A stretch of 62,690 bases of DNA, filler included, from Rhabdomonas costata (taxonomy: Eukaryota), in assembly GCA_019059605.1 (NCBI GenBank). It is 28 parts of 28 records of this genome, joined end to end, with 100 filler letters (N's around TTAATTAATTAA, not from the genome) between each part and the next. Parts side by side here need not be neighbours in the genome. Positions count along the whole stretch, not along the records: positions 20,217 to 22,358 come from JAHMHO010005324.1; 27 more parts are not named here. One strand, given 5' to 3'. Shown one piece after another: positions 13,391 to 42,410 of this stretch. How positions within the stretch are numbered: position 1 is the stretch's first letter; each line of letters begins with the position of its first letter. The position numbers and the translations under genes are program-made. The notes beneath the pieces were generated by a model. The model did no database searches. It was given only the letters and a program-made list of their open reading frames with translations, and had not been told where the DNA came from.

Positions 13391-13898
13391 NNNNNNNNNN
13401 NNNNNNNNNNNNNNNNNNNNNNNNNNNNNNNNNNTTAATTAATTAANNNNNNNNNNNNNNNNNNNNNNNNNNNNNNNNNNNNNNNNNNNNATGGTAGAGG
13501 TGATGTTGGTAGAGTTGAAGCGTAAGGGCTAAGGTACGCTGATGCTAAGGTTGATGCTAAGGGAACTGGGGGCGGGAGTTGTGACTGAATTTGCGACAGG
13601 GGTGCCAGGGCAGATACAGGGAGCCACTACCGCAAAGATGTAACCATATTAGAAAAGACGTTGCCCCAGCAAACAATATTAAACGAGGGCGGAGTTCACT
13701 GCCTTGCATTGCCAACGGAGGAGGCCCCAGAGAGCTCCGAAAACCAATGACAAACGAGTCTTTTCATTCGTTTTGGAATGGGCTTTCATTGGAGCGGAAT
13801 CAATCAGTGGTAAGGATGTGGCCATTAGAGGGTTGGGGTGAGGAGGCTTATGATGAGCTCACGCACAACACACAGAGCACAGGAACATAGGGTCGCAC

Positions 13899-14895
13899 CA
13901 GATCCGTGCCCCCAGGACTAAGCTCTACGGACATCACCGGCGCGGAGTGGCCCTCCAGCACTGCAATATCCCTCTGGGAGCTCCACTCCGCGACCCGCGC
14001 CAGGCCGTCCGCGGACCCCGTAGCGAGCACCCGCGGGTCCACGCCCGAGGGGCCACCGCCCCCAGAGCTCACGCTCATCACCGTGTCGAGGTGTCCGCGG
14101 AGCTCCGCGAGTGGGGCCCCCCGGAGGTCAAAGACACGAGCCCTGGAGTCGCTGGTCCCCGTGGCGACATGAAGGCCCGAGGGTGAGAAGGCTGCTGCCC
14201 AAACCTGTGCGGGTGAAGGGGCGAAGCCAAGGGCGAAGACAAGCGAGACAAGGGCGTGTTAGATGTGGAACAATCCCAGTTGATCCCGGTCACCACAAAC
14301 CCACTTTGTGTGAAGAAGTATGGAAATGGTCTATTTGCATTACTTCCAATAACTGCAGCTTTTAGTCCACTTGTGCTGTTTCCTTTGTCCTCTTTCCACT
14401 TTGTCTGTCCACCCAGAAACAACCCATTCTCCATCAAAGCTGTGGGACTGAATGGAGTTAGCGCTAGCTAGCGCTGCGGGGGGGGATATTCTGAGAGAAG
14501 ACAAAAACCCTTCAGCCCTGCATCATCACGACGCGATTAATGGATGCAAATAACGCAGCAGCCCGTTTTCTGCCGCACCGACATTACCATCCAAACAAAA
14601 ACAGCCCAAAACGCGGGGTAAATAAATGCAGGCATAATGAGGAGCCAAAAAGAATGCGCCCACCCACCACCCACCGAGCAGGGATGATGGACGGTCACGG
14701 TGGCGGCGCCCGATGAGGAATCCCACAAGATGGCAGCCCCGTCCACACCCCCGGAGAGGATGAGGCGCCCGTCTGGGCTACAGTGGCACCCTCGGACTTC
14801 GCCGGAGTGCCCCCGCAATACCAGCACCGCCGCCCCAGAGGTCGTGCTCCACACCCTCACCGTGTGGTCAGCAGAGGCGGAAACAATGCACTGAC
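13899..14895 (-). CDS. WD40-repeat protein (partial)
   Basis: Exons 14895-14675 (IVSASADHTVRVW...LRGHSGEVRGCHCSPDGRLILSGGVDGAAILWD) and 14204-13899 (AFSPSGLHVATGTSDSRARVFD...LRGH...LATGSADG...LEGH), joined GT-AG in phase. Confidence 0.93.
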
Positions 14896-15803
14896 CTTGG
14901 GAGAACCCCACCCACGCCAACAAACAAGACTGCCAGAGAAGAACGGCTGGGGCATTGACTAAGGCACAGAGAAGAGGCGCTCACTCACTCACTCATTCAC
15001 ACAATCACACTCATTCGTAAAACCAACTGGTGTGTACAATGATAACACAGTGGGCAGCTTATGCCAAAGGACTGCAAGCAGCGAAGTAAGGTTGCATGTG
15101 AATTCCTTCCGTTCATTTTGTCGGGTTCAACACCAAAGGCCAAGAACCCGCCCGAATCTTGCTTTTGTTTGTTCATTATGGAATTGGGCGATGCGCAAAA
15201 AAGTCCCCCTTCCACCCCAACCAAAGCAACCCGAGGCACGACAAGTCTATCTCTAGAGATGATCTGATGATTTCTGTGCCTGGTCCTCCGGCTCCGGTGC
15301 CAGGGGCCCCCTTTGGGCAGTCATCCACCGAAATTCCGAAGAAAGGTGGGTTACGGTGTTGTCTTTCGCGCGCCCCGTCTCCCATCACCCCGCTGTCATG
15401 CTCTCATCAACAAGACTGTGTGACTGGACTGTCGCCGCCCACGTTTATTTTGTGATTCTCTGCGTTTAATACTGTGATCGGAAATAGAGACCGCTTTTGC
15501 GGGTTCCCCACCTGGCTCGTTTTTATTCCAGGTGCTTCAACCAAGCTCGCAGTAAGGGCCGGGGGTGCGACGACCCAAAGCGAGCTCCAAAAAAAAAAAG
15601 AAGAAGCCCCCTTTAAAGAACTCCCAAAAAAANNNNNNNNNNNNNNNNNNNNNNNNNNNNNNNNNNNNNNNNNNNNTTAATTAATTAANNNNNNNNNNNN
15701 NNNNNNNNNNNNNNNNNNNNNNNNNNNNNNNNTGGTTTGCAACGTGCATAGACAGTTACTACTATCTAGTAGATAGTAGTAACTGTCTATGCACGTTGCA
15801 AAC

Positions 15804-17504
15804 CTCGACCTTCTTCCCCAAAATGGTATGGTACTGGGCTCCACATGCTCGATCCGCCTGCTCCATGGTGGCGAACAGCACAAATCCAAAGCCACGCTGC
15901 TTGCCCGTATCCCTCTCCGTGATGACCTAGATACACAGCAGCAGAACACCGTGACAAACAATTGGATGGTGCAATGTCAACCTCAAGGCCCCCACAACGC
16001 AAAGAACACAGAAACTTCCACCCTTCCTTGCATTGCACGCAAAGAATCCAACCTTCGCGGCCAGCACTTCACCGTACTGCTGAAAATGGGCCTCCAAGTC
16101 CTTGTCCGAGCAATTGGGAAGTCCACCCACAAAAACTCGATTATCTGCGAGCGAGAAAATGCTCCAAACCCCCGTAGCATTTCCCACTTCAATTGCGCCG
16201 CTGTTTCCTCCCCCTCCCAAACACAACGGTCAGTATGACCTTCAGCAGACAAAACTGAACTCAAAGTACCCTGTAAGAGTGTAGGCACGCCCATGAGGGG
16301 TCGCGCGGTGGGATCAAAGGCAAGAGTGGCAGTTAGGCGTTAAATCCGTGAAATCTGATGAATTGAATGTTCAGGATTGCACGAATTTCAAAATTCCTTG
16401 TGAACCTAAAAGGCTTCAATTCAATTTCTTTTTGAAGCAAGAAAAGCACCCCACTGTGCAACAACAATTCAGTGAAACGAAAAATTCAACGTCACTGAAT
16501 TCAAACTTCAAAGTAATCTTCTTGAAACGGAGAGGGATAATCCACGGAATTAAATTCAACTTCAGCCACGAGTTTCCCAAATAAAAAAACACGAAATACT
16601 CCAAGTGCTCACTTTAAAGCTCAGGCCGAAAAGTACAGGGTTCAAAGCAACCCTAACCCGCTGAAAAACGAAGGCATAAGACCCGTGCCGAAAAAGACGC
16701 TGTCGGACAAAGTATGAGGCTTCGTCCAAAAAATGTAAGACGTATGAATTCGGACAAAAACTTACACAATGAAAGTCTTTCAGTCTTAAAGTTTTCTGAA
16801 AAAGTCTTATATTTAGTGCGACCCGACTGTAATTAAAGAACGTTGAAAAAAGCGTGCTCACTGTCTCCGACAGCAAAAGAAGCATACTTGCATTTGACGG
16901 AGCGGCGGCATTCGGAGCAGCCGAGCGGCTGGGTTTGGGAGTTGTTCCCCCTGATTCAGAATCAGCTATACGAACGGTGACGGTCCGGTCCCGAAAGGGC
17001 CTGGAGTCAATGGAGCAGAGTTGTTTGGCCTCTTCCTCGTTATCAAAGCACAAGAAGCCGAAGCCTCGACCCCGACCTGTTTGAAAGCAATTATGAAGCG
17101 TTTTATTGATGGCATTCCGGTTTGTAGTGTAGGAAGCGGAGCAACCAGACGCAGGCACTGAACCACTGTCCGCCTTCTGGACATCGTTCGAGTGCACCGT
17201 TCAAAAAAAGCACTGTACAGTTCACCAACACATATTTCAACAGCTGAAACACGAGTGCTTCTGATGAGCACAACTTATAGAAAATGCGGAAACAACCCGT
17301 TGCGGCATCTCTGAGGACACGGGCGGCGTTGATTTTGCCGAAGGAAGAGAAAGTCTCCACCAGTTCCTTCTGGGTAGTGTCCACTGGAATTCCACCAACA
17401 AAAACTCTGATCCCGGGACCACTTTGTGGAAGCAAAAGGTCCTCAGCTGCTGGCAACCCTTGAGTCAACCCAGCAGGCAGCACCACCATGGGAACACTGG
17501 ACAT
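15804..17504 (-). CDS. Multi-RRM RNA-binding protein, hnRNP A/Musashi-like (partial)
   Basis: RRM1: RVFVGGIP...RDAATG|RGRGFGFLCF. RRM2: RVFVGGLP...QQYGEVLAAK|VITERDTGKQRGFGFVLF...ILGKKVE. RNP2 and RNP1 motifs are split by GT-AG introns. Confidence 0.92.
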
Positions 17505-18093
17505 CTCCCGCACCGAAGCCGAGCGAAATCCCAGCAACAAAAAGCGGGCAACAGCGAAATGAAAGCTGCAAATAAGAAAAACAATAGATGTTGACAAAAA
17601 ACGACCATTGTTCGGCTCAAAGAGGCAGGGATGATTAAAGCAGCATTAGGGGATTCCGAAATACAGAGGAAAATAGGGGCTTGATTTGTCAGCAACCCCT
17701 CCTTATAGCGGTGAAGTAAAAATTTTACCTAAACATTATTGTGAACGCTATAAAAGTTCTTTCGGTAACCCCATAGATTTTTTGTCAAATTTTATAGCAT
17801 TGTATAAACGAAGCTATTCACCCACGTTTTTCCGTTTCGTCCCCTGCCGTTTTGAACTATACTTCACCAAAACANNNNNNNNNNNNNNNNNNNNNNNNNN
17901 NNNNNNNNNNNNNNNNNNTTAATTAATTAANNNNNNNNNNNNNNNNNNNNNNNNNNNNNNNNNNNNNNNNNNNNTGTTTTTGTGTTGCTTCAACCGGTTC
18001 GCAGTCGGCTGAGTTTTTTCGCCCCTTGTTTGGTTGCCTTCTTGGTCGCCTTTGCTCAGTTTTCTTTGTCTTTGCTCGTGGGTCATCGTGCAG

Positions 18094-19728
<1,635 letters not shown>

Positions 19729-20216: not shown

Positions 20217-20615
20217 GTGATGTGGCTGGTGGACCAGCGCACCACGGGCTACAACATGCCCGCAAGCAACGCCCTCGTCGACGACAACACCTTCAGCCAC
20301 ACGGCGCCACCGGTGGGCCCCATTACAGCCTCCTCCACCCCTTGCATGCGGCTGGTTCCCAAAGCGTCGCACCCTGTTGGGATTGTTGCGGTGCATCTGT
20401 TCAACCGCCCCGACTGCTGCCAGCACCGCCTGGCTGACATCGTTCTCAGCCTTTGGGTATTCCATTCACTTGCCTATATCCTGTCCCTGTGCTTGCATCC
20501 TGGAAAACTAACCTGTAGGGTTTGTGGGATTCCGTAGGTCTTGGTTGCTATGGTCTTTTGTCCCCATGTCTCTCTGCATACACGACTCATACCTTTCCAT
20601 TCGACACGCTCCGGC

Positions 20616-20674
<59 letters not shown>

Positions 20675-22358
20675 GACGCATAAGTGGACACGCGTTCACT
20701 TTAGCTCGCCGTTACTTCGCAACAATTATTTCTTTCACTGTCGCTTTGTGCTTGCTCTGTGATTGGTTTGATGCCCAGTTGTTCTTTTTTGCACACCTTT
20801 CTGTTGAAAACCACGTACCACGTCTTTCTGCGACACGCACTCCATTCTCCTCTTCGTTTCTGTAGCTTTTAATGTCTTTCGAGTTTATATTGCCAAACAC
20901 CTGTTTATTGCTCTAATTGCTCACCCTTTTTCTTCTCTGAACTCCGAACACGTTTGCTGTCCCATTTTATTTTGTAGGATTCTCCGTCGAGCTGCTATTG
21001 GGAGTCCCCTGTGCACAACCCCGGCAATGCCCTCGGATTTCCGACAGTAGCTCCCATCGCAGGTGAGCATCGAGCAAATTTTTTGAATGTAATTGCTGCT
21101 CCTTTCGTAAAACTTTTTCCACGTTGATTTCCCTTCGACAGATGCCAACATTTACGTCGTTATGCCCGCGGAGATTCAAGCCCGGTCGGTCGCGATGCTC
21201 CAGATCGAACGGCGGTGTAGCCCTTCGATTCCTCCGGAAGACCATGTTCTCAGCTTGCGGTTTGTCCGAGTTGAAACCCGGCCAGCCCTACCCTGCGGGC
21301 CGCCAGCGGAGGTTTCCGCGCTTGCACCATCGGTAGACTTTGTCTGGGAAAACTGTAAGGAGGATTCTGATGCAGAATGGAACCCGTACTCCGCGGAGCT
21401 CCAGCCGGAACTTGAGAGGTGCTTTGGAGAGAAACAGTCCTTCCGGTTTTCTGTGGGCTCGGAGCGATTTGTTGTTGACTTTGGCACTATGAGGCAGTAC
21501 AATCAGGCTGACCCATCCCGTATTCGATATATCCGCCGTCGAGAGGCCATGGCCTCAGATAGCAGCAAAGCCAAAGGAAGCGGGAGCAGCACCTCCTCCT
21601 CCTCCTCTGAAGAGGGTCCACCCTTGCGGATTTCCTCCGGCCCATGCCCCAGCGCGCGGTCGGTCTTCTTGAGTGAGCAAGTGCGGCAACTTGGGCGGCA
21701 GTTTCCGGCACTGTCGGAATATGAGCTTGACGAAAAGGCAGAAGAGCTGTGGAAAGCTTTGGATGTCAAAGGTAAAAAGGTTCTCATGGAGAAGGCGCAG
21801 ACGCTCCTTGAGCAGAAAGCGAAGGTTCATTGCCCTTCTTGTTTGAACTCGAGCTGCTGTGTCCATGTGCCCTTGCCCTTGCGTTTCGCTGCCTTTTTTA
21901 CAGGCCGCTTCGTCGGGGTTGAGCACTGGCCTGGGCAAGGCAACTGTGAAGGTCGGTCTTTCTCCTTTTCTTTCGTTCTACGGCTCCATTTGGTGTGAAG
22001 AATGTCATGCAATTGAGTGCAATTGCTTGGGATGGGACACCTTGCTGGCAGATTCCAACAAGCACGAGCTGCGAATGATGTCAGCAAGTGCCACCGTTCG
22101 GTCAAGTCATTGGCTCCCAGCTCCCAACGCAGCTCCCGATTATTTGCGAAACCCTTGCTGACTATTTGTATGAATACTCAGCCACACTTTTTGTGTGTTT
22201 GATGGCATCACCGCGACCTCTCGTTGTCGACCCACCCTTCTATTGCGCTCAGGAGCTTCAGTGCTTTCTGCGGGAAGTGTACCTGCCAGTGACTGGCTCC
22301 AAAGCCGCCCTCCTCGACCGCGTCACTGAAGCGCTACAGCACGGCCTCCCCACACCAC
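20217..22358 (+). CDS. Multidomain protein: F-type-lectin-like + WWE + HMG-box-like + SAP (partial at both ends)
   Basis: Exons 20217-20456, 20978-21062, 21142-21824, 21904-21951 and 22253-22358 join in phase by GT-AG. Motifs: FSHT...VHLFNRPDCCQHRL...LSLRFVRVE; VWE...WNPYSAELQPELE...FVVDFGTMRQYN...RYIRRR; PSARSVFLSEQVRQL...FPALS...AEELWKALD...EKA; LGKATVK|ELQCFLREVYLPVTGSKAALLDRV. Confidence 0.8.
20615..20672. repeat. (CAGA)n microsatellite in an intron
   Basis: About 14 perfect units. Confidence 0.95.
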
Positions 22359-26793: not shown

Positions 26794-27547
26794 CTGAAAA
26801 AAAAAACACGAAGGCAAGGAAGCAAGCATAACACACAAACNNNNNNNNNNNNNNNNNNNNNNNNNNNNNNNNNNNNNNNNNNNNTTAATTAATTAANNNN
26901 NNNNNNNNNNNNNNNNNNNNNNNNNNNNNNNNNNNNNNNNGGTTGTGTGGGCTCGGGTGAGGGGAAATTATCGGGGGCCTTTGCAACGGTCTGCAGCGCA
27001 TTGATTACCCTGCGACACTTTTGCAGCGCGTTACCTCATAGGGTCCATCCGCGCAATTAGTGGTTCCGTTTCCACGAGGGAAAGGGAAAGGGTAAACTTG
27101 GCAAACTTGCTCGGCGGGAAAGGACGACACAGGATTCAGCACGATGACAAGTACGGATATTAATGAGAAGCCGGATCAATATAGACCAGCTGCTGGTTCC
27201 TTTCTGCCTAAGAGGGTGGTGGGCACTGACTCGGCAGTGGAGGCGCGACAAGGACCCGGAGGACAGGGAGTTGATACCCTCATCCCAACAAATATCAGCC
27301 ATACGACGATAATCTCTGCCGTAATGCAGGAAGCGAATTTCAAATTACACAGACCTATCATCAAAAAGGGGGAAGATGTGCCCCCTGCACGTGATTCAAA
27401 AGAGGTGAATCTTTCTCCGCCTGTGTCTGTCAGTGCTCCGTTGTGCTGAACTCACACCCATACATCAGAAAAACAGTCCCCAAAATTGCCGATGGCAATT
27501 ATAAATGCCCCCGAGTCCATTTTGGCTGCCAGCCTTCCAGTGGGCAG

Positions 27548-27820
27548 GACGTCCGAGGAAGGGCTTTCAAGGAGAGAGGAGGGTTTTGCTCGGGGCTCTC
27601 CTTTAGCCTTGCCCTCCTCCTCCGCGGCGCGGTCCACCCCCAGCAGGAAAACCCTGGCGGAGGTCAGAGTGGCCACTGCCTTGCGCACGGTATCATCAGT
27701 GCTCCCCGAGAGAAAGCAGACGTACAGCACCAGGCCTCCCCGAATGGAGACGTACCGGCTGATATTGTCCACCAGAAGAGACGCAGACTCGACCTGCTGC
27801 GCGACAACCCGAATGCTCAT
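27548..27820 (-). CDS. DTD2: D-aminoacyl-tRNA deacylase 2 (DTD2/ATD-like), first exon
   Basis: MSIRVVAQQVESASLLVDN...VSIRGGLVLYVCFLSG...SLLE...DV resembles DTD2 (LLQQC...RGLVIYVCFFKG). It has QQ where DTD1 has QR. The downstream PQA-type exon was not found on the contig. Confidence 0.75.
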
Positions 27821-29699
27821 AGGAACGGTGCGGAGTGGAATGAAAGAGTGAAAGGGAACACTGCACTAACCTTCCAGGCTGCGACAAAACCGGAAGCGTG
27901 GTGAAAGGAAAAAGGTATCTGGGTTTCACCAATCAAATCTGATCCTCAGGGAAAAGGGAGGTGTCGCATCGACAAGAAAACGACTGCAAGCCCAGACCAA
28001 CCCGTTTCCAATTTAAGAATGAGGACAGAAGCCATTTTGTTTATTAAACTGCAGCCATTAGTGTGCTTGGGCGTTCCGGCGGATTCTCCTGTGAATCTCC
28101 AAACAAAAGAAATCACACCCGTTTGCAGCTCAGAATACATTGAGAGATAAACGGGCTCCATATGGCCAAGGTGGCTTTTGATGTGCTCCGTAAGAGGCAG
28201 TGAAGAATGGCACCCGGAAAACGATTCCCTCGCACACGTCCCCAAGCAAAATGCCTTGGCTTCGGTCACGATACGCACAATGACAAATGTTGCCACACTT
28301 GAACCAACCCAACCTTACAGGAATGCTTCATGAAGAAAATCAAGAATTAATCAGGTCACAAATGCGAAAACATACACCACGACAAGAAATTCAGCAGGCA
28401 AAACGAGCAGAACGAGTATAGTCACTGCCACAGACCCCAAGGCACCGGCAACTAGGCGTCACACGCTGCATCTCAGGAACGACGCTGGTTAGTATGTAGC
28501 CTTTCAAAAGAAGAAGCAACCTCCTCAGGCGAGAGCACCCGGCCAGGCTTTTTCCAAGGCTGGTCCTGAATCAAGAGGCAGCAAAGGAATCTGTGCAGAG
28601 TGTCCATTCGTGGTGGTGACGCAAAAATAAAAATATAATGCCATAAAATCGATCTATTTTGAACTTAAAATTAGTTGACAAAAATAGAAGAAACGAAATT
28701 CAACAGAAATGAAATGCCTGCATTCCAGCTTGCTTCGGTGTTTTGTTTCCTTCAAGTACAAAAAGTCAATAATGTGCAGCGGCACAGCTGACCAGTAAAA
28801 CCAATCGATCTAACCGAATGAACAATTGACATGCAACCACGCTTAAAAAGCTACCAAGGTAAAAGATCTTTTTTGTTTGAAAAAGATAAAAGTGGAGGCA
28901 AAGGTGGACAAACGTTCCGCGCGCGAAAGGGAGCGACCAGACATGAAAAGCATTATGAAACTAAGAAGTCGAGGAGGAGGTAAGTGCAAGCTGCAGGGCA
29001 ACCATTATGATGTACTTGGCGGTCAGCCGAGCTTGGGACTCCTGCATCCTCTTCAAGCCATCCCCAACACACCAAAACCCCNNNNNNNNNNNNNNNNNNN
29101 NNNNNNNNNNNNNNNNNNNNNNNNNTTAATTAATTAANNNNNNNNNNNNNNNNNNNNNNNNNNNNNNNNNNNNNNNNNNNNCTTCGAACTGGGTGACCGC
29201 CCTCAGGCGCTTGTGCTTGGCGAAGGACGTTTTCCCACGTTCGTACCGTACATTGAAAAAACCAGTTCAGAAACCTTTTATTGCCAATATTTGGACCATC
29301 AAGCAGGACTTTTTTTTTGACTGTTTTCGACCCGGATTTCGGGTGATTCCCACGGTGGCACGGTGGGTCGAAGTTTTTGGATGACGCTATTTCGTGACAG
29401 TTGTGGTTGTTGGTGCTCCTGATGTTCCTTGTCAAGTTTCTGAAACTGGGTTTTGGCATCCATTCACCGACCAATGCACTTCAGGCAGCATAAATTGACC
29501 GATTAACATGTTTTCCAACAAAAGGGTTGGCTTGTGTCCAGAGAAGAAAAACAAGTCAAAAAGTGTGTCCTTGTGCGTATCTTTCGCGTGTTTAAAAATG
29601 AAAAAAAAAGGGGGGGGAGGCGGGAAGCGTCAGGTCTGGATCATTCTCAAACTTTTGAAAGACGGGTGCAATTTAACTCACGCGGGATGCAACACACCA

Positions 29700-31090: not shown

Positions 31091-32823
31091 GACCCGTCGG
31101 TACGACGAGACATGTACAATTCGCACTGGGTTCGCTGAATTGCCAGCCCAGAAAGGACTCATTTGCTCTTTTGCCAATTGGGGCAACTGACTCCATTCAA
31201 CCGAGATCACCATTTCTGTCTCTCTTCAGCAGAGACGCGCGGTGTCTTATTGTTGAATGAACATTACTTTCAAAAGATCACGCCCAGTTTTATAAATGCA
31301 GCAATTATGTTAAATGGGTTACNNNNNNNNNNNNNNNNNNNNNNNNNNNNNNNNNNNNNNNNNNNNTTAATTAATTAANNNNNNNNNNNNNNNNNNNNNN
31401 NNNNNNNNNNNNNNNNNNNNNNTGTTGTTTGGTTGTTGGGGGCACTTTATTTTAATGAAGCAAACTCACAAGTGGTGAGCCGGCACCTAGATTTGGTGGT
31501 CGACGCACTTTTTCGATAGTCGATCATCGTTGTCCTAGACTGCGTCGATTACTGACCACCTTACTTGCCCTTCGACGTTAAAATGGAAGCATTATCTCCC
31601 ACAAAAATTGGGATCGATTTTCGATTTTTGCCTTTTGGCTGCTGGAGTACCGATTACCTTTGCAAAAACAGCAACGGAAAAATGACCAAAAACCTCTTGG
31701 TTACCTCACTCGATTACCGACTATCGTGACTTCCTGAGGCGTCGATCACCTCAAAAAGTTAGTCGCTGATCGATTACTTCGATCAGCTGATGGATAGATA
31801 ATGAATCATAGGGCACCTCGCAGCCCCAGACGGTGCCATAAGAACCCCAAGCGAGCACCCCAGGGTGCCAGGATGCGGTCTTGACAAGGATTCTTTTTCT
31901 TCCCGTTTTCTTTCCTTTGGTCTCCTTCTCCTGTCCCACACAGTAAAAACTGGTTGTCACCCAAACCAGAGGGAGCTGAGAGCCCTGCCTACCTTGAGCC
32001 CAGCATAGGAGCCTCGTGCTTGTTCTTCCACACCCCTGTCTCGTGTCATATTTGCTTGCTGACGAACTGACTGGCTTTGGTGCAATTATTGAGCACAGGA
32101 AAGTTCTTGGTTGGAAAATGCAACCCTCTCGCACCTGCTTCATTGGGGTCTTTGAATACGCAGCATGCCTCCCGAAACTCTGCGTGGCCAATCCTTGCAG
32201 CATTTTCTGGCCCCTCCCCCCGTCCTCTTTCCTATTCCTTTTGCGCGGCTCTCTGCCAGCGTTGTTTTTGGTAGCCTCCCGTGATCTTGGTCTGTCCCCC
32301 TTCCTGGTCTCCCTGGTGATAGCACTGACTACTATCGACTTTCAAAAGACGATAGTAAATACCATTGACGTTTTTGTGTTGCTATCTTTTTTGACTTACT
32401 CTCGACACTATCGTTTTTTTCCCGGCATCCCCATTATCAGAGGGTTCGAAATGACATGTCTTAGCACAAGATCTTAGCTGCCCCCAGACCTCCGCCCATG
32501 GCCGCCCCTTGTAAATTTACCAGTTCGCTTCGCAACTTTAAATTTCGCCGCAGAACACCGAAGAAGGCAGGAACGACACTCGTCTCATAACGAGATTCCC
32601 AGGGCCTGGCCATGGCACACCACAGTTTGGTGCCATGGCGGCGGAAATAGTTCGCAAAAACGTGTTTGTGGGGTGGGATAGGAGAGGGCTCCGAAACAAA
32701 AAGGACAAGTTTGTATTGTGATCGGTGAAGAGGTCCAGGACAGCGGCGAAACAGTCCCCAGTCCCCGTCCAAGGTGTGTTTTTGACAACCCTCCCCCTCG
32801 GTCTTCAATCGACCGGTCCTGAC

Positions 32824-33559
32824 CCCTAACTGCGAAGAGGAGGGAGCGATGCGCCATTGTGAAATCCCCAGAGGCGCACCAAAACACAAAGCTCGGAGAC
32901 GGCCGGATCGTCCGGTTCAGCGGAGGGAAGTGCAGACGCACCGGTTTGAGCTTATAATGAAACTTTGTTGATGAGCCGCAGTCTGTAATTAGTCCCAATT
33001 CCTTCACCGCACTGTGCTCCCAGTCGGTAGACCTCATATCAAATGACCACATAGCAAAGTCTTCGCGCAGATCATAGCGCACCGCTGCGAACACAGAGCC
33101 TGGGTCAAGTCCCAAGGCCAACCTCCTGAAAAGCGCATCCGAGAACAGATTGTCACTGTTACACACAAGAATGAACAATCCCGTGGCACGACGGATTCCA
33201 ACGTTCTTCCCATGGTACTCAAGTACGGGAGGCGCGGTTGAGTTCCAACCAGGGTGGGACTCAGAATAGTTTTTGACCACCTCAGAATGCAGACGTGAGC
33301 TCACCCAGATGATCCGCAGCACTGAGAACTGGGACAATGTGAAAAGAGCCTCGTGCAGACGTGGTCGGTTATCAGGGGGGTTCCATTCGACAATGAGATG
33401 TTCGGTGCGAATTCGGTGGCGGTCCGCCAGAGCCCCAACGTTGAGGATTTGGCGCTGCAGAGAGACAGCAGCCGACACGTTTCCTCGGATGTCATTGCGA
33501 GAGACAGTAACCACAGACAGCAGAGGAGACACTGAGGAACTTGAAGGCGCCAACCCCAC
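32824..33559 (-). CDS. GT-A fold (GT2-like) glycosyltransferase (partial)
   Basis: LSVVTVSRND...LIVEWNPP...EYHGKNVGIRRATGLFILVCNSDNLFS...ASGDFTMAH in one exon of about 735 nt or more, ending at a probable G|GT donor. Confidence 0.8.
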
Positions 33560-36417
33560 AACCNNNNNNNNNNNNNNNNNNNNNNNNNNNNNNNNNNNNN
33601 NNNNNNNTTAATTAATTAANNNNNNNNNNNNNNNNNNNNNNNNNNNNNNNNNNNNNNNNNNNNTTGGGTTGGGTTTTGGGGTCCTTGGCGACTCCCGCTT
33701 TTCCTCGGTAAACTGACTGTTTTGGTGCTTTTTCCTCCTTCTCAGGGCTATGATGGTGCGAGAACGCGCAAGCTTTGACCCCAAAACCCAACCCTCTTGG
33801 CAAATAGCCGGCGTTTGGGCGGCCATTCCGCGAGGAGGGTGTGCTTTCGACCGTCTGATGCCTTTGCTTTGGCTTTGCCTTGCCTTTTCTAACCAACACG
33901 CGCACTTCAGGGGATGGGTGTGTGGGTGTGTGGGGTTTCGCCGCTTTCCACTTTTCCAGGCTAGTGTGCGAGCACAGCAACAGCCAAACAGTACGAATCA
34001 AGGCAAGTCCATCCAAACACAACGCGACTTACGATACACAGCTCCACCGCCCAAACCTTTACAAAACCTCTTGCGCTGCACCCTGCGAACTCAACCGCTA
34101 CAACCAAAACCAAAAAGCAAGAAAGAAGATTTTAAACACACCACGCTTCAACCCATTGCGTTACGCAATTATCAAACTCCTATTCAACACGTCAGGTCAA
34201 AGAGCCACAAAACGCATCCAAAGCCCCTTTTGATTCTTCAACTCGATGTAGAAAGAAGCTTGAAGATTCAACTCAACATAATCTTCCTTAAATCCGCGGC
34301 ATTCTTCCTTTTGGCTGCCATTCCATAGAATCCCTGGTATCTCAGCATCTTTAACCTCATCGACAGAAAGGCGTTGTAAGGGACAACAGAACCTGAGGCC
34401 AGCACACCGAAGTATTGCCAGTCAGTGCTTGCGGACATCCAAACAATGAGTAAATCTGACTGACAAAGGAAGCCCAGAACACGTATTAATCTGGAAAAAT
34501 CTGTACCTGGCAGATATGCAGCCACTACTGTACGCTGCAAAAGTGATGGACACGACTGCTTGCTCTTGTTTCAGAAATAGGCCGAAGTGACTCAAACGTA
34601 GCTAGGAACTTTACCAGGCTCTCGGAGAGACCTCCCACCACAGACCACAGGCCAGGCATCGCATTACCCCACACCCCACTCCTTTCCCCACTCTAACAGG
34701 TCACCAAAAGAGAAAAGACCAACCAGCCGCCGACAGTAGAGCCTCCACCAGGCACCGCCAAAGTATTGTAAAGGGTCGAATCTGGAACCTCTCGCTTGTG
34801 GGGGAGATTCCTGAAACGTCCGTAGACGCGTCGGTGCCCATGGGAGAAGGAAGGGGCCGATACACGACCCGTCTCCGAAGGTAGATGGAAGCACGTAGCG
34901 GTAGCTCCACCGTAACACATCAGTTTCGACAGGTCACGGCTTGGGCTCAGCGACAGGCCTGCTGTACTGCCCCAAGTACTGCGGAGAGGTGTGAAGGCGG
35001 GCCCCAGTCTTTCCTGAGGACTTCCGCCCGTAGTGCTGCACCAAGGAGAACCGTGTGGCCAGGGACAATGGGGGGACAGCGCCCACCTTCCCCGTTCCGT
35101 TCCGCATGTAGCTCCTAAGAAGCATGTCCGGGAAGACCACGCCCCCGCGGATGCGGCCTGTGAGAACCTAAAGACGGAGGACAAAGGGCGAATGTGAGTA
35201 CCCCGTGAAGTTTCTTCTTGGACTACGTTGAGCGCTGTGAAAAAAGGGCATCTTCAGGTTTTTTTGGGTTCCCGTTGACTGCTACCTTGGGACATTTTAT
35301 ATGGGACACCCGGTATATCGACATTTTTATTTCGTGAACAAAGAAATTTTAATGAGGCTCATAATGGCAAACATAAGGGAGAAGGTGGAAACAAAATCAA
35401 GAAAACAGATGAGGAACTCATGCGAACTGCTGCCTTACCATGCCGTCATGCATTCTACTTTGTACAAAGTCAAGCGATTCCAAAAACCCCACAAGTTCAG
35501 AAACAACTCCGCATTCCACTACGCCTTGGATGACAACACTCATTTTGGGCACACACTGAGAACAGGTGGGTCATACTTCATTCAGCTGAAGCTGCTGGAA
35601 CTCTTGGCCGGCTTGTGGGGAGAAATATACCGCCTGAATACACCCCCCCCTCTCTCTCTCTCGAGGTGCTGCAGAGTGCATCAAAAAGTGACCGCCTCGG
35701 TCGCTTACAACGCTAAACGTTTCGAACGTTTCGCCGTGCTAAAGACATTGCCCACCCCATGATACGTCCCAATCCAGCCACCCGATTCGGCCGCGCCCCC
35801 CCAAAANNNNNNNNNNNNNNNNNNNNNNNNNNNNNNNNNNNNNNNNNNNNTTAATTAATTAANNNNNNNNNNNNNNNNNNNNNNNNNNNNNNNNNNNNNN
35901 NNNNNNTTGTGGTTGTTTCTTTTCTTCAAATTTGTTCTCTCTGTGTGGACCCCACTGTCGAGATAAAATTTGAAGAAAAGAAACAACCAGAAAATCAATG
36001 CAGACCGGCCAGGGGTGAAACGACCGGCGGCAGTGGGTCCCTCTCTGCAAAGGCTGTCTGACTTCCGCAGCAGCCGCAAGCATTGCACAGCGGAAGCGTG
36101 ATTTAGATTTTCCAAGCAAGGCCCCAAAATAAAAAAAATCATAAGAGATAGGATGACCTGGGGCGTTTAGTGGAGGAACGCCAGGGAGTAACAATAAAAC
36201 TTTGGGGAACAGAGCGCTCTCTCAATAAAGCTTAAAAAACAGCTGGGGAACGCAGAATTTGTGCAAAAGGGGGGGGGGGCATCGCACTGGAAAGCATCCC
36301 AGCATGTCCATCAAAGAAACCAAACTCCACCCAACAGGTAGAGGTAGCCTCGCGTTGGTTGAAAATTGCATCTGGCAATTGCCAGGGCGGGGTGCGTGGT
36401 GTAGCAGGGAAGCATAC

Positions 36418-37077: not shown

Positions 37078-39564
37078 CTGAGCGCATTGGGGAGGGAGGC
37101 AGTCAAGAAAATGCACGGCTTGCTAGAGAGAGTGGCAAGCAGCCATTCAGCTTCCCAAATGCAATGCACGGTTCTACTGAAAGACCCGGGCAGAAATTCC
37201 ACTAGACAGTCCTCCTCACAACTCACGGAATCCCACAAAAAGCTGCCATACCCGCGGAAACAAAATTCTCTGCCTCTGAACAACTGAACTTCATTCAACT
37301 GAATCATAGAAAATAGACTAGTTATTTTTGAATACTATCAGCATTTCCCTCAAAGCAGACCGATTTTGGGCATTTTTATGCTACATACGAGTTAAACAAG
37401 GCTGTAAGGAGGCACTCCCTGGAGGTGGCCCTTCAGGAGCCACCTTTGATCTCCCCCGGTATCCTGTGCTGCTCTTTCCCCTCGCAGCCGGACGGTTTGA
37501 GGTGACACCCACAAAGTTCCAGGAAATGGGGAGCACAGACAGATGCATTTCCCGTATCTTCAGATTAGCTTCTCAGAAGGCGGGCCATAGAAGAAAGCAA
37601 TGTCTTCTATTTAGTACAGTGACAAAATACAAGCACTTACAAGAGCACTTTTTAGTGGTGCACAAACTTGAGCAATTCGTGCCGATACCGTGGGAAGCGC
37701 AGTGGAAAACTGGCTGCATGGCTAAGCCCGTGCAGAATTGCAGATATCTACGAACTTTGCAAAATTGTAATACAATTACGACGTAGTTTTTAGACAGCAA
37801 GTTCGGAAAATCGAGTGGCCTTTTCAGCTCCTCCTGTATGTTTACAAAAAAGAGCCATTAATTAAATTTGCGGAATAAAAGTCCAAGGCGATCTTCACGT
37901 CAAAAAAGGAGTGTCGGCCGTGATAAAGACCCTTTTTAAGGCAACAGCGCCCCGCACCACACCAGGTCCCCACAACGCCGGTCTCGCGGTGAAAATATTC
38001 TTGCCCCCACTGATTTGTCATCCAGAAGACACACGAGCAAAGAAGGANNNNNNNNNNNNNNNNNNNNNNNNNNNNNNNNNNNNNNNNNNNNTTAATTAAT
38101 TAANNNNNNNNNNNNNNNNNNNNNNNNNNNNNNNNNNNNNNNNNNNNGGGGGGGGGGTCAGCAACGGTTTCCACCCAAAGGAGAGAAAGAAAAACAGGGG
38201 AAGGATGAATGGTGAGAAGACGGCCTTTTTTCTGGGCACTCTCGAGATTTGGTCGGGGACCTGCCTTTGCTAAGATGCGGGGGAATTCGCGGACAGATAT
38301 CCAAACGGCAGAAAGTGCACAGTGACCGCGAGCCAAGAATATTTCAATGGCAGAGGACCAGTTGGACTCATGGGAAAATCCAAAAATTAAAGTCATCATC
38401 AGGACAGTACACTTCCCCTCCTCTCCCCTTCTATAGGGAAAAATAGCATCATCTATTGGACACTAGCACAGTTTATCTCTCACGGTGCTGAGGTGAACAC
38501 AAAAAATCGTTAACATTAACAGGGAATGGGGTCTCCGCCTCATGGGTCGCAGCCGGTTGCGCCATGGGTTGGCCTCACCCCCAAAATAATATGCTGCCCC
38601 AATTGATTCGCAATGTCCCACGTTTTTGTAGCGGCGTTATACATTTAACACCCCTTCCTCACCAAAAATGCAAGCGTCCCCACCCAGGAGCCCTCCAAAC
38701 GTCCCTGTTCCAATCGAAGGACAACTTAGGGTTCGGCTCTCCAGAGGAGAACAAATGGGCACCTGTCAGCGAGTGTGGTGCGACCAAAGCAGTCATCCCT
38801 TGCTAGGGAACCTGAGACTTGCAGGACCGGGTTACAGAAAGAGAGCACAGACACAAAGAGTGAAGAGAGTCTTCGAGAAAAACGGTTTAGATGGACATGG
38901 CATACCGTGCGGCACAGGCATTCTGTGCCGTACCCAGAAAGCACTCCTTTCGTGGTCGCTCTCCGACGGCCCACGGTGATGATCAGCGAAGCCTCAGAGG
39001 CGAGGCCGCCCGAGCGGCGTGTGCGAGCACCCCCAGAGAGGGGGATGGCCCAGCACTGATACCAAGACACCATCCCCGAGTTGGGGGCAATCGCCACGGG
39101 CCGCATCTCCGAAGTGCTGTGCTGCGGTCGCGACTTTTGCTTACATTTCGCGCCCCAGTGTTCGACGTCTCGGAGGGAGCGAGGCGAGCAGAGAGGATGG
39201 TATATTGCGTTTTTCTTTAAGCCTGGGACCCGCGGGGCTGGAGGGAGCATCCTGGCGTGTCTTGTGGTGAGCCGTCACTCCGCGGCACCTGACAGTGCTA
39301 TGGGACCCCCCGTGCGAGCACCTTGGCGCGTCTTGACTAGAACCCCTTTTCTTTTCTTCCCCTTCTCCACCGTCTTTTCCTTTCACGCACAAACATGTAC
39401 AAACGTATACAAACATATACATTGTGCCAGTCACCCAAACCAAAAGACCACAACACCAAGTGGCCATGCATCATGGCTGAAAGGGAAGGGAAGTCACCCA
39501 AACCAAAATGAGATCTGCAAAAATGATTAAGAGCGGAGGGGGGAGGGGAGCGTGTGCCAGCCAC

Positions 39565-39868
39565 CGATGGTGAGGTTGTGGGGCCTCTTCTTTTGATGCG
39601 ACCCCACCACGAACAAACTGGCGTCGTTCTTGAACCCCAGGAACTCCAGGCTGCGGACCCCCTCGAAGGGGTGGAACTGGTTCCGCTTCGACAGCCGCAC
39701 GGCGTGTGGCTGGGCCAGCTGGTACAGCTCCCGCAGCGCCCCACTGACGACCTCGCTGGTGCGGCTGCCGCGCAGGAAGAGCGTGGTCTTGGGGTTCTCC
39801 TCGAGCTTGGGCTCGCGGTGCTGCAGCACCCGCTTGCTGCGGCGGTTCTTCGGAGGTCGCCGCAGCAT
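39565..39868 (-). CDS. RPF2: Ribosome biogenesis protein RPF2 (Brix domain), first exon
   Basis: PKNRRSKRVLQHREPKLEENPKTTLFLRG...HPFE...LEFLGFKNDASLFVVGSHQKKRPHNLTIG. Confidence 0.93.
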
Positions 39869-39899
39869 TGGTGGGAGGGGGAAAAGAGAGAAGTCGGTG

Positions 39900-39931
39900 A
39901 GAGTGAGTGAGTGAGTGAGTGAGTGAGTGAG
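39900..39931. repeat. (GAGT)n microsatellite just upstream of RPF2
   Basis: Seen directly. Confidence 0.9.
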
Positions 39932-40176
39932 AGGATGTACCTCTGCACACCCACAGGGGAAAAAGGTCTTCCTACTCCTACCTCTCCCACTCAGAGGGCG
40001 AGGGCTTTGGAGACCGGGAGAAGGGAAGAAGGAAGATCTGTGGGTGAAAATGGGTGCCAGAAAGGTGGCGGTGGTAAGCGAAAGCCGAGTTGAGCCTCGC
40101 GATGAGGGATCACACCTACGAGATTATCTGTATCAGGATGCTGTTAGCATGGTAATTAGCTTCATGGTCACTGTGA

Positions 40177-40899: not shown

Positions 40900-42410
40900 A
40901 GATTGTGATCGAACTGTATGAAACCAACACGGCCGCGAGGTGCAACCTCTACGCGTCGAACCTAACGGAGAATCCCACTGCCAGCAACGCCCTGTGGAAG
41001 GTATCTCGTCGTGGGGCAATCGCACTTGTTGTGCCAAAGCTCTCCCCAACCCACTTTTGCAAGGGGAACTTAGGATTTGAAACGGTTTTTCAGTATCTCT
41101 TGTAGTGAGCCCCAGATAGTGTTCAAGTTTTCCCGGGGACGCGTTTGCCTCGTCTCCCTTTTAGTGGCCGTGCAAGCTTTGCTTTTTCAACCTTGTGATC
41201 CGAATGAAAAACGAAAGGTTCAAGACGCGCAGCCCCGAAAGAAGATCACCATTCTCCCCGTGGACCCGTTGTACCAGCTTGGGTCCTTGAACGTTGCTGT
41301 GATTTACCAGAAGCAGTCCGGTGTCGCCCTGTTCGGAATAATGTACAATGTGCGAGGTGCTTGATTCTCAGCATTTTCCCTCCACCGCAGCCCTCTTGCA
41401 TTTATATAAGATAAGCTTCATCCCGAAACTTTAGTTTAGGTTAGTATGTTACGAGTTTCCCCATGTCCTGGGAACGCTATAAAGTGCCGTTAGTCTGGTA
41501 AGTGTGTATAGGATACGTTTTAAACGTTTTCTTGTTACTGAGGCTAAAAAGCGCGTGTTCTGAGTTTACGGTGTTACGTGCCATATCGAGACGCTCCGTG
41601 CAGCGTTGAAAAGCATTCATTGTGAAAATCCACACTAACATATAATGAAACATTGCGGCAACATGACGGATATAAGCACCTCAGCGCCGTTTTTTCGTAT
41701 GAAAACCCCGCATGTGTGTGTGTGCTTGTGTGCTTAGAAGTGTACACGGCGACCTGGGTGTTCAAGAATGGGATGAAGTATAGCGGGGTGTGGAAGGCCG
41801 ACAAGATGAGCGGCCAGGGCACCGCGGAGTGGCCCAGGGCGGACGGGGCTGTAGAGCGCTACGTGGGGGGCTGGCTGGCTGGGAAGAAGCACGGCAAGGT
41901 AGGCCCTACCACAGAGCAAATGCTTCCTAAACATTGGCTTCCTCTCTCCCGGTCTCACACCTTTTTTTTTGCACACTCTTACACGCCCTTGTTTTTGTTC
42001 TGGGCTCCATTCCAGTTATTCAGATGAGACTTTTTGCCATTTGCCATGATATGATTGCTGTACCGTGCTTGGTGAAGGTCCTATCGCATTCTCCTCCGCC
42101 TCCGCATCGATTACTGTTGTTTACTTTGGTATTTCAATCATTTTCAGCCCTTCACCGTGGAGGTCATAATAATAATATTATTATTATATATGATTAATAT
42201 TATTATTATATTATTTTTTGCTCCCCGCACGCGCGGTGCCCTTCCGCCCATTGCTTGTGACCTCGCGGAAGAACGCACCAGGTCGGGAGGTCCTGATGCC
42301 TTGGGCTTGCTTTGCAGGGAACGTACACGTGGCCGAACAAGACCTACGAGGGGGACTGGGCCGATGGCCAGCGCAACGGGTTTGGAACTCTGACCTGCCT
42401 CACTGGCGAG
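40900..42410 (+). CDS. MORN-repeat protein (partial)
   Basis: Exon 41738-41898: KYSGVWKADKMSGQGT...RYVGGWLAGKKHGK. Exon 42318-42410: GTYTWPNKTYEGDWADGQRNGFG. In-phase upstream exons EIVIELYE... and VQDAQPRKKIT...LGSLNVAVIY are weakly C2-like. Confidence 0.88.

Follow-up and report, generated by a model that had tools for sequence, protein, structure and literature searches.

A partial gene model from Rhabdomonas costata that would combine an F-type-lectin-like domain with WWE, HMG-box-like and SAP domains

Known F-type lectins bind fucose and are either secreted or exposed at the surface, in animals and bacteria, or are appended to bacterial enzymes and toxins, and WWE, HMG and SAP domains are intracellular modules, mostly nuclear. 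Here we describe a contig of the eukaryote Rhabdomonas costata (JAHMHO010005324.1, positions 20217–22358) in which a predicted spliced gene appears to bring these modules together, encoding in order a lectin-like domain, a WWE domain, a Ser-rich linker, an HMG-box-like segment and a SAP motif. This is probably a real and new combination of known domains, seen in one partial gene model. Positions count along the window, the whole 62,690-nucleotide stretch of DNA that was analysed, which holds 28 contigs of about 2.1–2.3 kilobases each. As the window is built of separate contigs joined by linkers of the form N44-TTAATTAATTAA-N44, pieces that are adjacent in it are not neighbours in the genome.

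The F-type lectin domain is defined by the fucose-binding motif H-X24(26)-R-X-D-X4-(R/K) (PMC5712786, PMC5297725), and the family is described as fucose binders of bacteria and animals in the available text of two sources (PMC5712786, PMC12221842), the second of which, a 2025 review, reports it absent from protozoans and mentions in that text neither “nuclear” nor “cytoplasm”. The N-terminal domain of the predicted R. costata protein shares with F-type lectins and CBM47 modules (eel agglutinin, 1K12; striped bass FBP32, 3CQO; S. pneumoniae SP2159, 2J1R; the F-type lectin domain of lectinolysin, 3LE0) the His, the R-x-D-x4-R and the Cys pair of the fucose pocket. It differs from them in having 35 residues between His and Arg instead of 24–26, in carrying Asp for Gly in the cation motif and in missing the W-W-x-V-D-L block. 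It would also be fused to nuclear-type intracellular domains, whereas the known members are secreted, displayed at the surface or appended to enzymes.

The WWE domain has the same fold as those of RNF146, HUWE1, TRIP12, Deltex/DTX1 and RCD1 (Z-scores 8.4–11.3) and exceeds the Pfam cut-off. Unlike in these WWE readers, no RING, HECT, DTC, PARP or RST domain accompanies it within the contig, and its partners are the lectin-like, HMG and SAP regions; in particular, Pfam detected no PARP, RING, HECT or DTC catalytic domain within 20217–22358, a contig truncated at both ends, and the larger PARP or E3 ligase suggested at first stays a conjecture. Plant RCD1 is described as a nuclear reader of poly(ADP-ribose) (PAR) that works without a ligase domain (PMC10115779). 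According to the available text of a PARP survey, SAP is found at the N-terminus of plant-type clade 1 PARPs and an H_lectin domain on rhizarian clade 3 PARPs, which are precedents for SAP and for a lectin in an ADP-ribose system; HMG goes unmentioned in that text (PMC4245714). In contrast with such SAP- or lectin-bearing PARPs, a PARP catalytic domain is not found in the contig, and the lectin is H-type there and F-type-like here. Dictyostelium discoidins are reported as cytosolic lectins of the discoidin / F5-8 type C class, so a lectin of this superfold can function intracellularly (bioRxiv 10.64898/2026.06.18.733164). They are likened to the present protein by description only, being small, cytosolic and without WWE, HMG or SAP.

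Exons and intracellular-type domains of the contig

The interval 20217–22358 is one entire contig of 2142 nucleotides, flanked by N linkers on both sides, and because the contig ends there the gene is truncated at both its 5′ and 3′ ends, as the first-pass annotation of this DNA had concluded. The proposal made there of five exons joined in phase through GT-AG introns also stands: when five exons of the same strand are spliced (20217–20456, 20978–21062, 21142–21824, 21904–21951 and 22253–22358), they give 387 codons with no stop, and the four introns, of 521, 79, 79 and 301 nucleotides, are all GT-AG, with pyrimidine-rich acceptors and with stops in at least one frame of each. Exons 1, 3 and 5 are each backed by protein-level evidence of their own.

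Exon 1 (20217–20456, on the plus strand, like every feature of the gene) is open at the 5′ end of the contig and finishes on a codon boundary at the donor tgg/GTATTC. It would encode the N-terminal two thirds of an F-type-lectin-like β-sandwich, including the His of the basic triad (20298–20300) and an N-R-P-D-C-C-Q-H-R-L block (20403–20432). Intron 1 (20457–20977, 521 nucleotides, GT-AG) contains 4, 4 and 5 stops in its three frames; it also harbours a (CAGA)n microsatellite, about 15 units long, at about 20615–20673. Exon 2 (20978–21062, 85 nucleotides), the putative middle of the lectin-like domain, follows the acceptor TTTTGTAG and ends one base into a codon at the donor cag/GTGAGC. After intron 2 (21063–21141, 79 nucleotides, GT-AG), exon 3 starts with the putative last β-strands of the lectin-like domain (21142–21275) and goes on to the WWE domain (21342–21539; exon 3 residues 68–133; PF02825), so that the two share one exon. 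A Ser-rich linker of low complexity (21543–21653) connects the WWE domain with the HMG-box-like helical segment (21654–21821; exon 3 residues ~172–227), whose Pfam match covers residues 175–222 (21663–21806). Intron 3 (21825–21903, 79 nucleotides, GT-AG) leads to exon 4 (21904–21951, 48 nucleotides; acceptor TTTTTTACAG, donor aag/GTCGGT), which may encode the first SAP residues. Exon 4 begins and ends on codon boundaries, so that skipping it would keep the frame, as in a cassette exon, and a direct join of exon 3 to exon 5 is likewise in frame, the end of exon 3 and the start of exon 5 both falling on codon boundaries. Finally, intron 4 (21952–22252, 301 nucleotides, GT-AG) precedes exon 5 (22253–22358), which is open at the 3′ end of the contig and carries the SAP motif at 22253–22336.

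Regarding the WWE domain, exon 3 residues 68–133 match Pfam PF02825 with an E-value of 2e-11 and 44.5 bits (cut-off 21.1), and a profile search with the segment matches DTX1, Deltex, HUWE1, RNF146 and TRIP12. Exon 3 was folded with a small alignment of WWE relatives, and over residues 61–130 the block means of the predicted local distance difference test (pLDDT) were 89, 79 and then 95–97; the linker fell below 50 at residues 147–159 and 161–168. A Foldseek search of the PDB gave 13 matches with E ≤ 0.001, and the first 24 rows consist entirely of WWE domains or proteins that contain one (TRIP12, HUWE1, RNF146, ZAP, PARP11, PARP14, DTX1, Deltex). The VIA structure search, which is independent of Foldseek, placed WWE chains in all of its top 11 positions (Z 8.4–11.3, root-mean-square deviation 1.8–5.7 over 68–88 residues), the next row being at Z 5.1. 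From the Pfam score and the modelled fold together, the WWE assignment can be regarded as certain, and its earlier placement at about 21333–21543 agrees with the Pfam match. In RNF146, Tyr107, Arg110, Trp114, Tyr144, Gln153 and Arg163 are the residues which we take to hold iso-ADP-ribose; the residues aligned to them here are Trp, Asp, Asn, Phe, Gln and Arg, of which two are identical, two conservative and two changed. Ligand binding by this WWE domain is plausible from such an alignment, and not assured.

The HMG-box-like segment is more divergent. Its match to PF00505 (exon 3 residues 175–222) has an E-value of 0.0012 and 19.6 bits (cut-off 25.4). When the PDB was searched by sequence, HMG boxes made up 9 of the 16 matches at E ≤ 10 (UBF1 at 0.032; SOX17, SOX9 and HMGB2 at up to 0.44), and a Foldseek search with the isolated segment gave HMG boxes in all of the top 13 rows, at 22–36% identity and E-values of 0.24–2.4. 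In the context of exon 3 the model contains three main helices (172–187 with a short 189–192, 198–206 and 209–227), with pLDDT 55–85. Among the matches listed by the VIA search for residues 165–228 of the exon 3 model there was no HMG box, and unrelated helical proteins appeared at Z 3.1–3.8. A divergent HMG box is thus probable on three weak but concordant lines, from Pfam, PDB sequence and Foldseek, and the first-pass placement of an HMG-box-like segment at about 21642–21820 keeps its position, with HMG matches at 21663–21806, while the score stays under the family threshold.

The SAP motif passes the Pfam gathering score. Exon 5 alone matches PF02037 with an E-value of 1.9e-05 and 24.6 bits (cut-off 23.9), over profile positions 9–36 of 37, and it also matches PF18953 (E-value 8.1e-06). 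The predicted SAP motif is therefore independent of exon 4, which could add only the first few positions; in this respect the initial view that SAP “only assembles” through the 48-nucleotide exon 21904–21951 has to be given up.

The order of domains was compared with other proteins by several routes. An exhaustive HMMER search with exon 3 against 1.84 billion representatives gave 25 matches, the best at 1.2e-09, and all of them to the WWE part only. Each of these 25 nearest proteins carries WWE, which they pair with RING, DTC, PARP, UBA, LIM, CCCH or SUKH; none has F5/8, HMG or SAP. A scan of metagenome contigs produced 147 pattern matches, none of which was confirmed, the ESM Atlas gave no usable match to exon 3, and no paralogue of the predicted protein was found in the other 27 contigs of the window. 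The literature searched, from which the survey of F-type lectin domain architectures by Bishnoi et al. 2015 fell outside, holds no joint mention of an F-type lectin and WWE, and a WWE domain is named in none of the 10 entries listed, of 64 matched, by a broader search. The original remark that such an architecture had not been described is consistent with these results, since neither a description nor a database instance turned up, in searches that were not direct architecture queries.

The N-terminal lectin-like domain

Exon 1 contains a His followed, after 35 residues, by R-P-D-C-C-Q-H-R, exactly as first reported. All residues of the basic triad of F-type lectins are retained, and with them the Asp and the two adjacent Cys, whose codons lie at 20412–20417, within the R-x-D-C-C block, and which may form a disulfide. 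To obtain a family for comparison, prokaryotic genomes were scanned for the DNA pattern of N-R-x-D-C-C-x-x-R-L, which gave at least 124 loci; of the 134 frames that carry the motif among the matches listed, 126 stayed open for 150 codons or more, and a reference profile was built from these 126 bacterial domains. All but one of them (125 of 126) are PF22633 and PF00754. F-type lectins of solved structure come up in a search with this profile (FBP32, 6e-59; lectinolysin F-type lectin domain, 2.7e-39; SP2159, 2.4e-38; eel agglutinin, 1.1e-29), and other discoidin-type modules reach 1e-08 or weaker. The recovery of the solved lectins identifies the reference set as the F-type lectin / CBM47 family. 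Two side observations emerged from this collection. The HX26 spacing is looser in bacterial F-type domains than the textbook motif suggests, as only 54 of 126 have 26 residues between His and Arg; another 37 have 27, the remaining values (16, 25 and 28–33) account for 24, and in 11 no His lies in range. In addition, F-type-lectin-type domains occur in tandem, in two to four copies about 400–590 bases apart, in several bacterial genomes (collected loci L080:240-2498, L015:240-1583, L037, L066, L068, L109 and L112), with four in a deltaproteobacterial metagenome-assembled genome and three in Myxococcus qinghaiensis among the matches listed.

Scored against the 126-domain profile with HMMER, the spliced N-terminus reaches 34.4 bits, and exon 1 alone 30.9–31.4 bits. 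Shuffled sequences that keep the motif have a mean of 13.5 bits (standard deviation 2.6, maximum 26.9), and none of 500 attains 34.4. With the motif masked, the N-terminus still scores 1.5 bits, compared with a shuffle mean of −8.3 and a maximum of 1.0, again out of reach of all 500. The alignment of the N-terminus with the family by hhalign gives a probability of 96.7 and a score of 63.5 over 135 columns, whereas motif-keeping shuffles give 36.5 ± 2.3 (maximum 46.0), with none of 100 reaching 63.5. Aligned with the family, the His of exon 1 falls on the T-H-T histidine and the D-S-P that opens exon 2 on the consensus S-D-x-P immediately after the junction, and the hhalign alignment extends to the C-terminal L-S-L-x-E-V strand of the family, inside exon 3. 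The window yields 1263 six-frame segments free of X, and a few containing X, and of these the frame of exon 1 alone matches the profile significantly (E-value 4e-08). The ESM Atlas feature search, in turn, sets exon 1 beside clusters of PF22633 (NedA-like / F5_F8_type_C_2) at 0.96.

The Pfam and PDB searches and the fold prediction used unspliced exon translations, and the joined N-terminus was scored only by our own profile and by hhalign. In this form, the PDB sequence search with exon 1 returned nothing at E ≤ 10, and the first 45 residues of exon 3, the putative last strands of the domain, folded with low confidence out of context. The proposed exon 2 has the best donor, cag/GTGAGC, and a pyrimidine tract of 0.75; it adds 3.6 bits to the lectin-family profile score of exon 1, while reading on into intron 1 costs 1.0 bit. 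Exon 1 stops short of the full lectin-like domain, whose putative last strands are encoded by the exon of the WWE domain, and on this account the two domains would be physically linked.

We consider F-type-lectin-like a fair label for this domain, which appears related to the family and keeps its pocket residues, with membership in the family and fucose binding both putative. The label had been applied at the outset, and the part of it that concerns relatedness is borne out by a profile match above the motif-keeping shuffles and by the Atlas placement with PF22633, whereas the spacing, the cation motif and the Pfam results for single exons depart from it.

Alternative readings and the rest of the window

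The explanation to which we incline, with moderate confidence, is that the contig comes from the interior of a single spliced eukaryotic gene encoding the lectin-like domain, WWE, Ser-rich linker, HMG and SAP in this order, with a chromatin adaptor as the working model for its product. The N-terminal domain would be a divergent F-type-lectin-like (F5/8 type C 2, CBM47-related) β-sandwich, the WWE domain canonical and the HMG box divergent. Several results weigh against this explanation. At the level of the gene, the joins are predicted from sequence alone, so that the presence of five exons in one mRNA is itself an inference. Exons 2 and 4 lack the independent support enjoyed by the other three. 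Exon 2, the least secure of the model, is not a unique choice, being one of 39 frame-compatible AG..GT cassettes, in addition to which two direct joins are available. Word-index protein searches with exon 3 (longer proteins) and exon 1 (longer proteins and those of near length) found no orthologue. At the level of the domains, the match of the HMG-like segment lies below the Pfam cut-off, and the segment folded alone (pLDDT 84.5) has one short and one long helix, with helices 2 and 3 merged; in the WWE domain, the positions of RNF146 Arg110 and Trp114, whose roles are presumed here, are occupied by Asp and Asn. Regarding the lectin-like domain, the profile was collected by a motif derived from the query itself, so part of the 34.4 bits is built in, about 13.5 bits on average. 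Exon 1 contributes 59.3 of the hhalign score of 63.5, and the C-terminal 70 residues of the domain alone score −1.9 bits, which is reached by 51 of 500 shuffles and is not significant. The recognition value of exon 1 in the ESM Atlas, 2176, is under the 2300 mark. F-type lectins are, in addition, described as proteins of the cell exterior that disulfides and calcium stabilise (PMC5712786), a poor fit to a nuclear protein.

Some further departures count at the same time for another account, in which the gene model is right and its N-terminal domain is a generic discoidin/galactose-binding-like module that has lost its lectin activity, contacts a protein or some other ligand, and keeps the motif as a relic. 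The distance of 35 residues from His to Arg is outside the range of the family sample, which is 25–33, and once 16, in 115 of 126 domains. The cation motif h-h-D-G-x (PMC5712786) reads L-V-D-D-N here, with Asp for Gly, and the sequence lacks the W-W-x-V-D-L block found in the consensus of the family. Pfam, including PF22633 and PF00754, matches nothing in exon 1 or exon 2 taken singly at E ≤ 10. F-type lectin domains that deviate from the motif may differ in specificity or have none, and bryohealin and ranaspumin-4 bind other sugars, according to the available text of two sources (PMC5712786, PMC12221842). A Cys-Cys disulfide would, moreover, be unlikely in a reducing nucleus. A relic, however, would be expected to drift, whereas here the residues of the triad, the Asp and both adjacent Cys have all been preserved, and the similarity outside the motif exceeds that of every shuffle. 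We hold a generic module of this kind to be possible, though doubtful.

A different division of the contig would separate an upstream lectin gene, perhaps secreted, from a WWE-HMG-SAP gene that starts inside exon 3 at an in-frame Met, or would attribute the continuity to a mis-joined model. Met codons are indeed in frame at residues 8 and 19 of exon 3, upstream of the WWE domain, intron 1 is long and holds a microsatellite, and the part of exon 3 before the WWE domain has by itself no significant similarity to lectins; the predicted joins and the many possible exon 2 cassettes mentioned above also leave room for this division. Nevertheless, exon 1 leaves the lectin-like domain incomplete, and coding sequence of the same strand is required downstream. 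Continuing past the donor costs profile score and runs into a stop shortly afterwards, while the D-x-P that opens exon 2 coincides with S-D-x-P in the family consensus and the hhalign alignment arrives at the last strand of the family inside exon 3. Exons 1 and 3 are, besides, only 684 nucleotides apart, which would hardly accommodate a terminator and a promoter. We judge a pair of genes, or an error in joining the model, to be unlikely. It is very improbable that this DNA represents a pseudogene fragment that is not transcribed, or a chimera produced in assembling a fragmented draft. With no more than 2142 nucleotides, the contig stands among equally short ones, and no relative was found in any collection searched; set against this, the five exons are all open, with no frameshift or stop to mark decay, the splice signals are canonical, and the frame of exon 3, at 295 codons, is the second longest N-free open frame of the window.

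The other contigs of the window contain ordinary material. Pfam was run on 70 other open frames, 62 of which had no match, and the rest are exon-sized fragments of ordinary eukaryotic genes, among them a protein kinase (18676–19161, plus strand, E-value 7.4e-19), an RRM (17106–17645, minus strand, 4.1e-08), a Brix domain (39530–40123, minus strand, 1.4e-12), WD40 pieces (13851–14258 and 14540–14980, minus strand, 1.2e-14 and 8.2e-14), a D-Tyr-tRNA deacylase (27455–27865, minus strand, 9.8e-07) and a MORN fragment (41626–42024, plus strand, 3.7e-06). The longest listed open frame of the window (32585–33607, minus strand) has 340 codons, 15 of them X contributed by the linker, and runs into a contig end; in the 325 codons scanned, Pfam found nothing at E ≤ 1e-4. 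Rfam gave no match in the whole window.

A candidate adaptor at chromatin

In the chromatin-adaptor model, which is drawn from domain content alone, HMG and SAP would hold the protein on DNA, the WWE domain would dock on ADP-ribose-derived marks such as PAR, and the lectin-like domain would supply a second ligand pocket. This pocket would keep the basic triad and the Cys-Cys of fucose-binding F-type lectins, with a loop that is nine residues longer, and for that reason it may bind fucose, a different sugar or a protein. A nuclear location and every binding activity of the product are inferred from the sequence, and a coupling of ADP-ribose or sugar recognition to chromatin seems a reasonable conjecture on that basis. 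O-fucose of the SPY type occurs on nuclear proteins of protists and plants, as described in a paper whose available text does not use the word “reader” (PMC11853108). A stronger version of the model, in which the lectin-like domain is a nuclear fucose pocket that reads SPY-type O-fucose, in one chain with a PAR reader and DNA-binding modules, we regard as a long shot.

One partial gene model predicted from sequence is a lead, not a result. Should sugar binding have been lost, the protein would still illustrate, in a modest way, how domains are shuffled in a eukaryote that has been little sampled. If all four domains are in one chain, the known range of WWE partners would widen and a pocket of the fucose-lectin type would be placed on chromatin beside an ADP-ribose reader, and were it to read nuclear O-fucose, two nucleocytoplasmic sugar-based marks would be linked there. 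The predicted protein is thus a concrete candidate with which to ask whether dedicated readers exist for glycans inside the cell, for example nucleocytoplasmic O-fucose.

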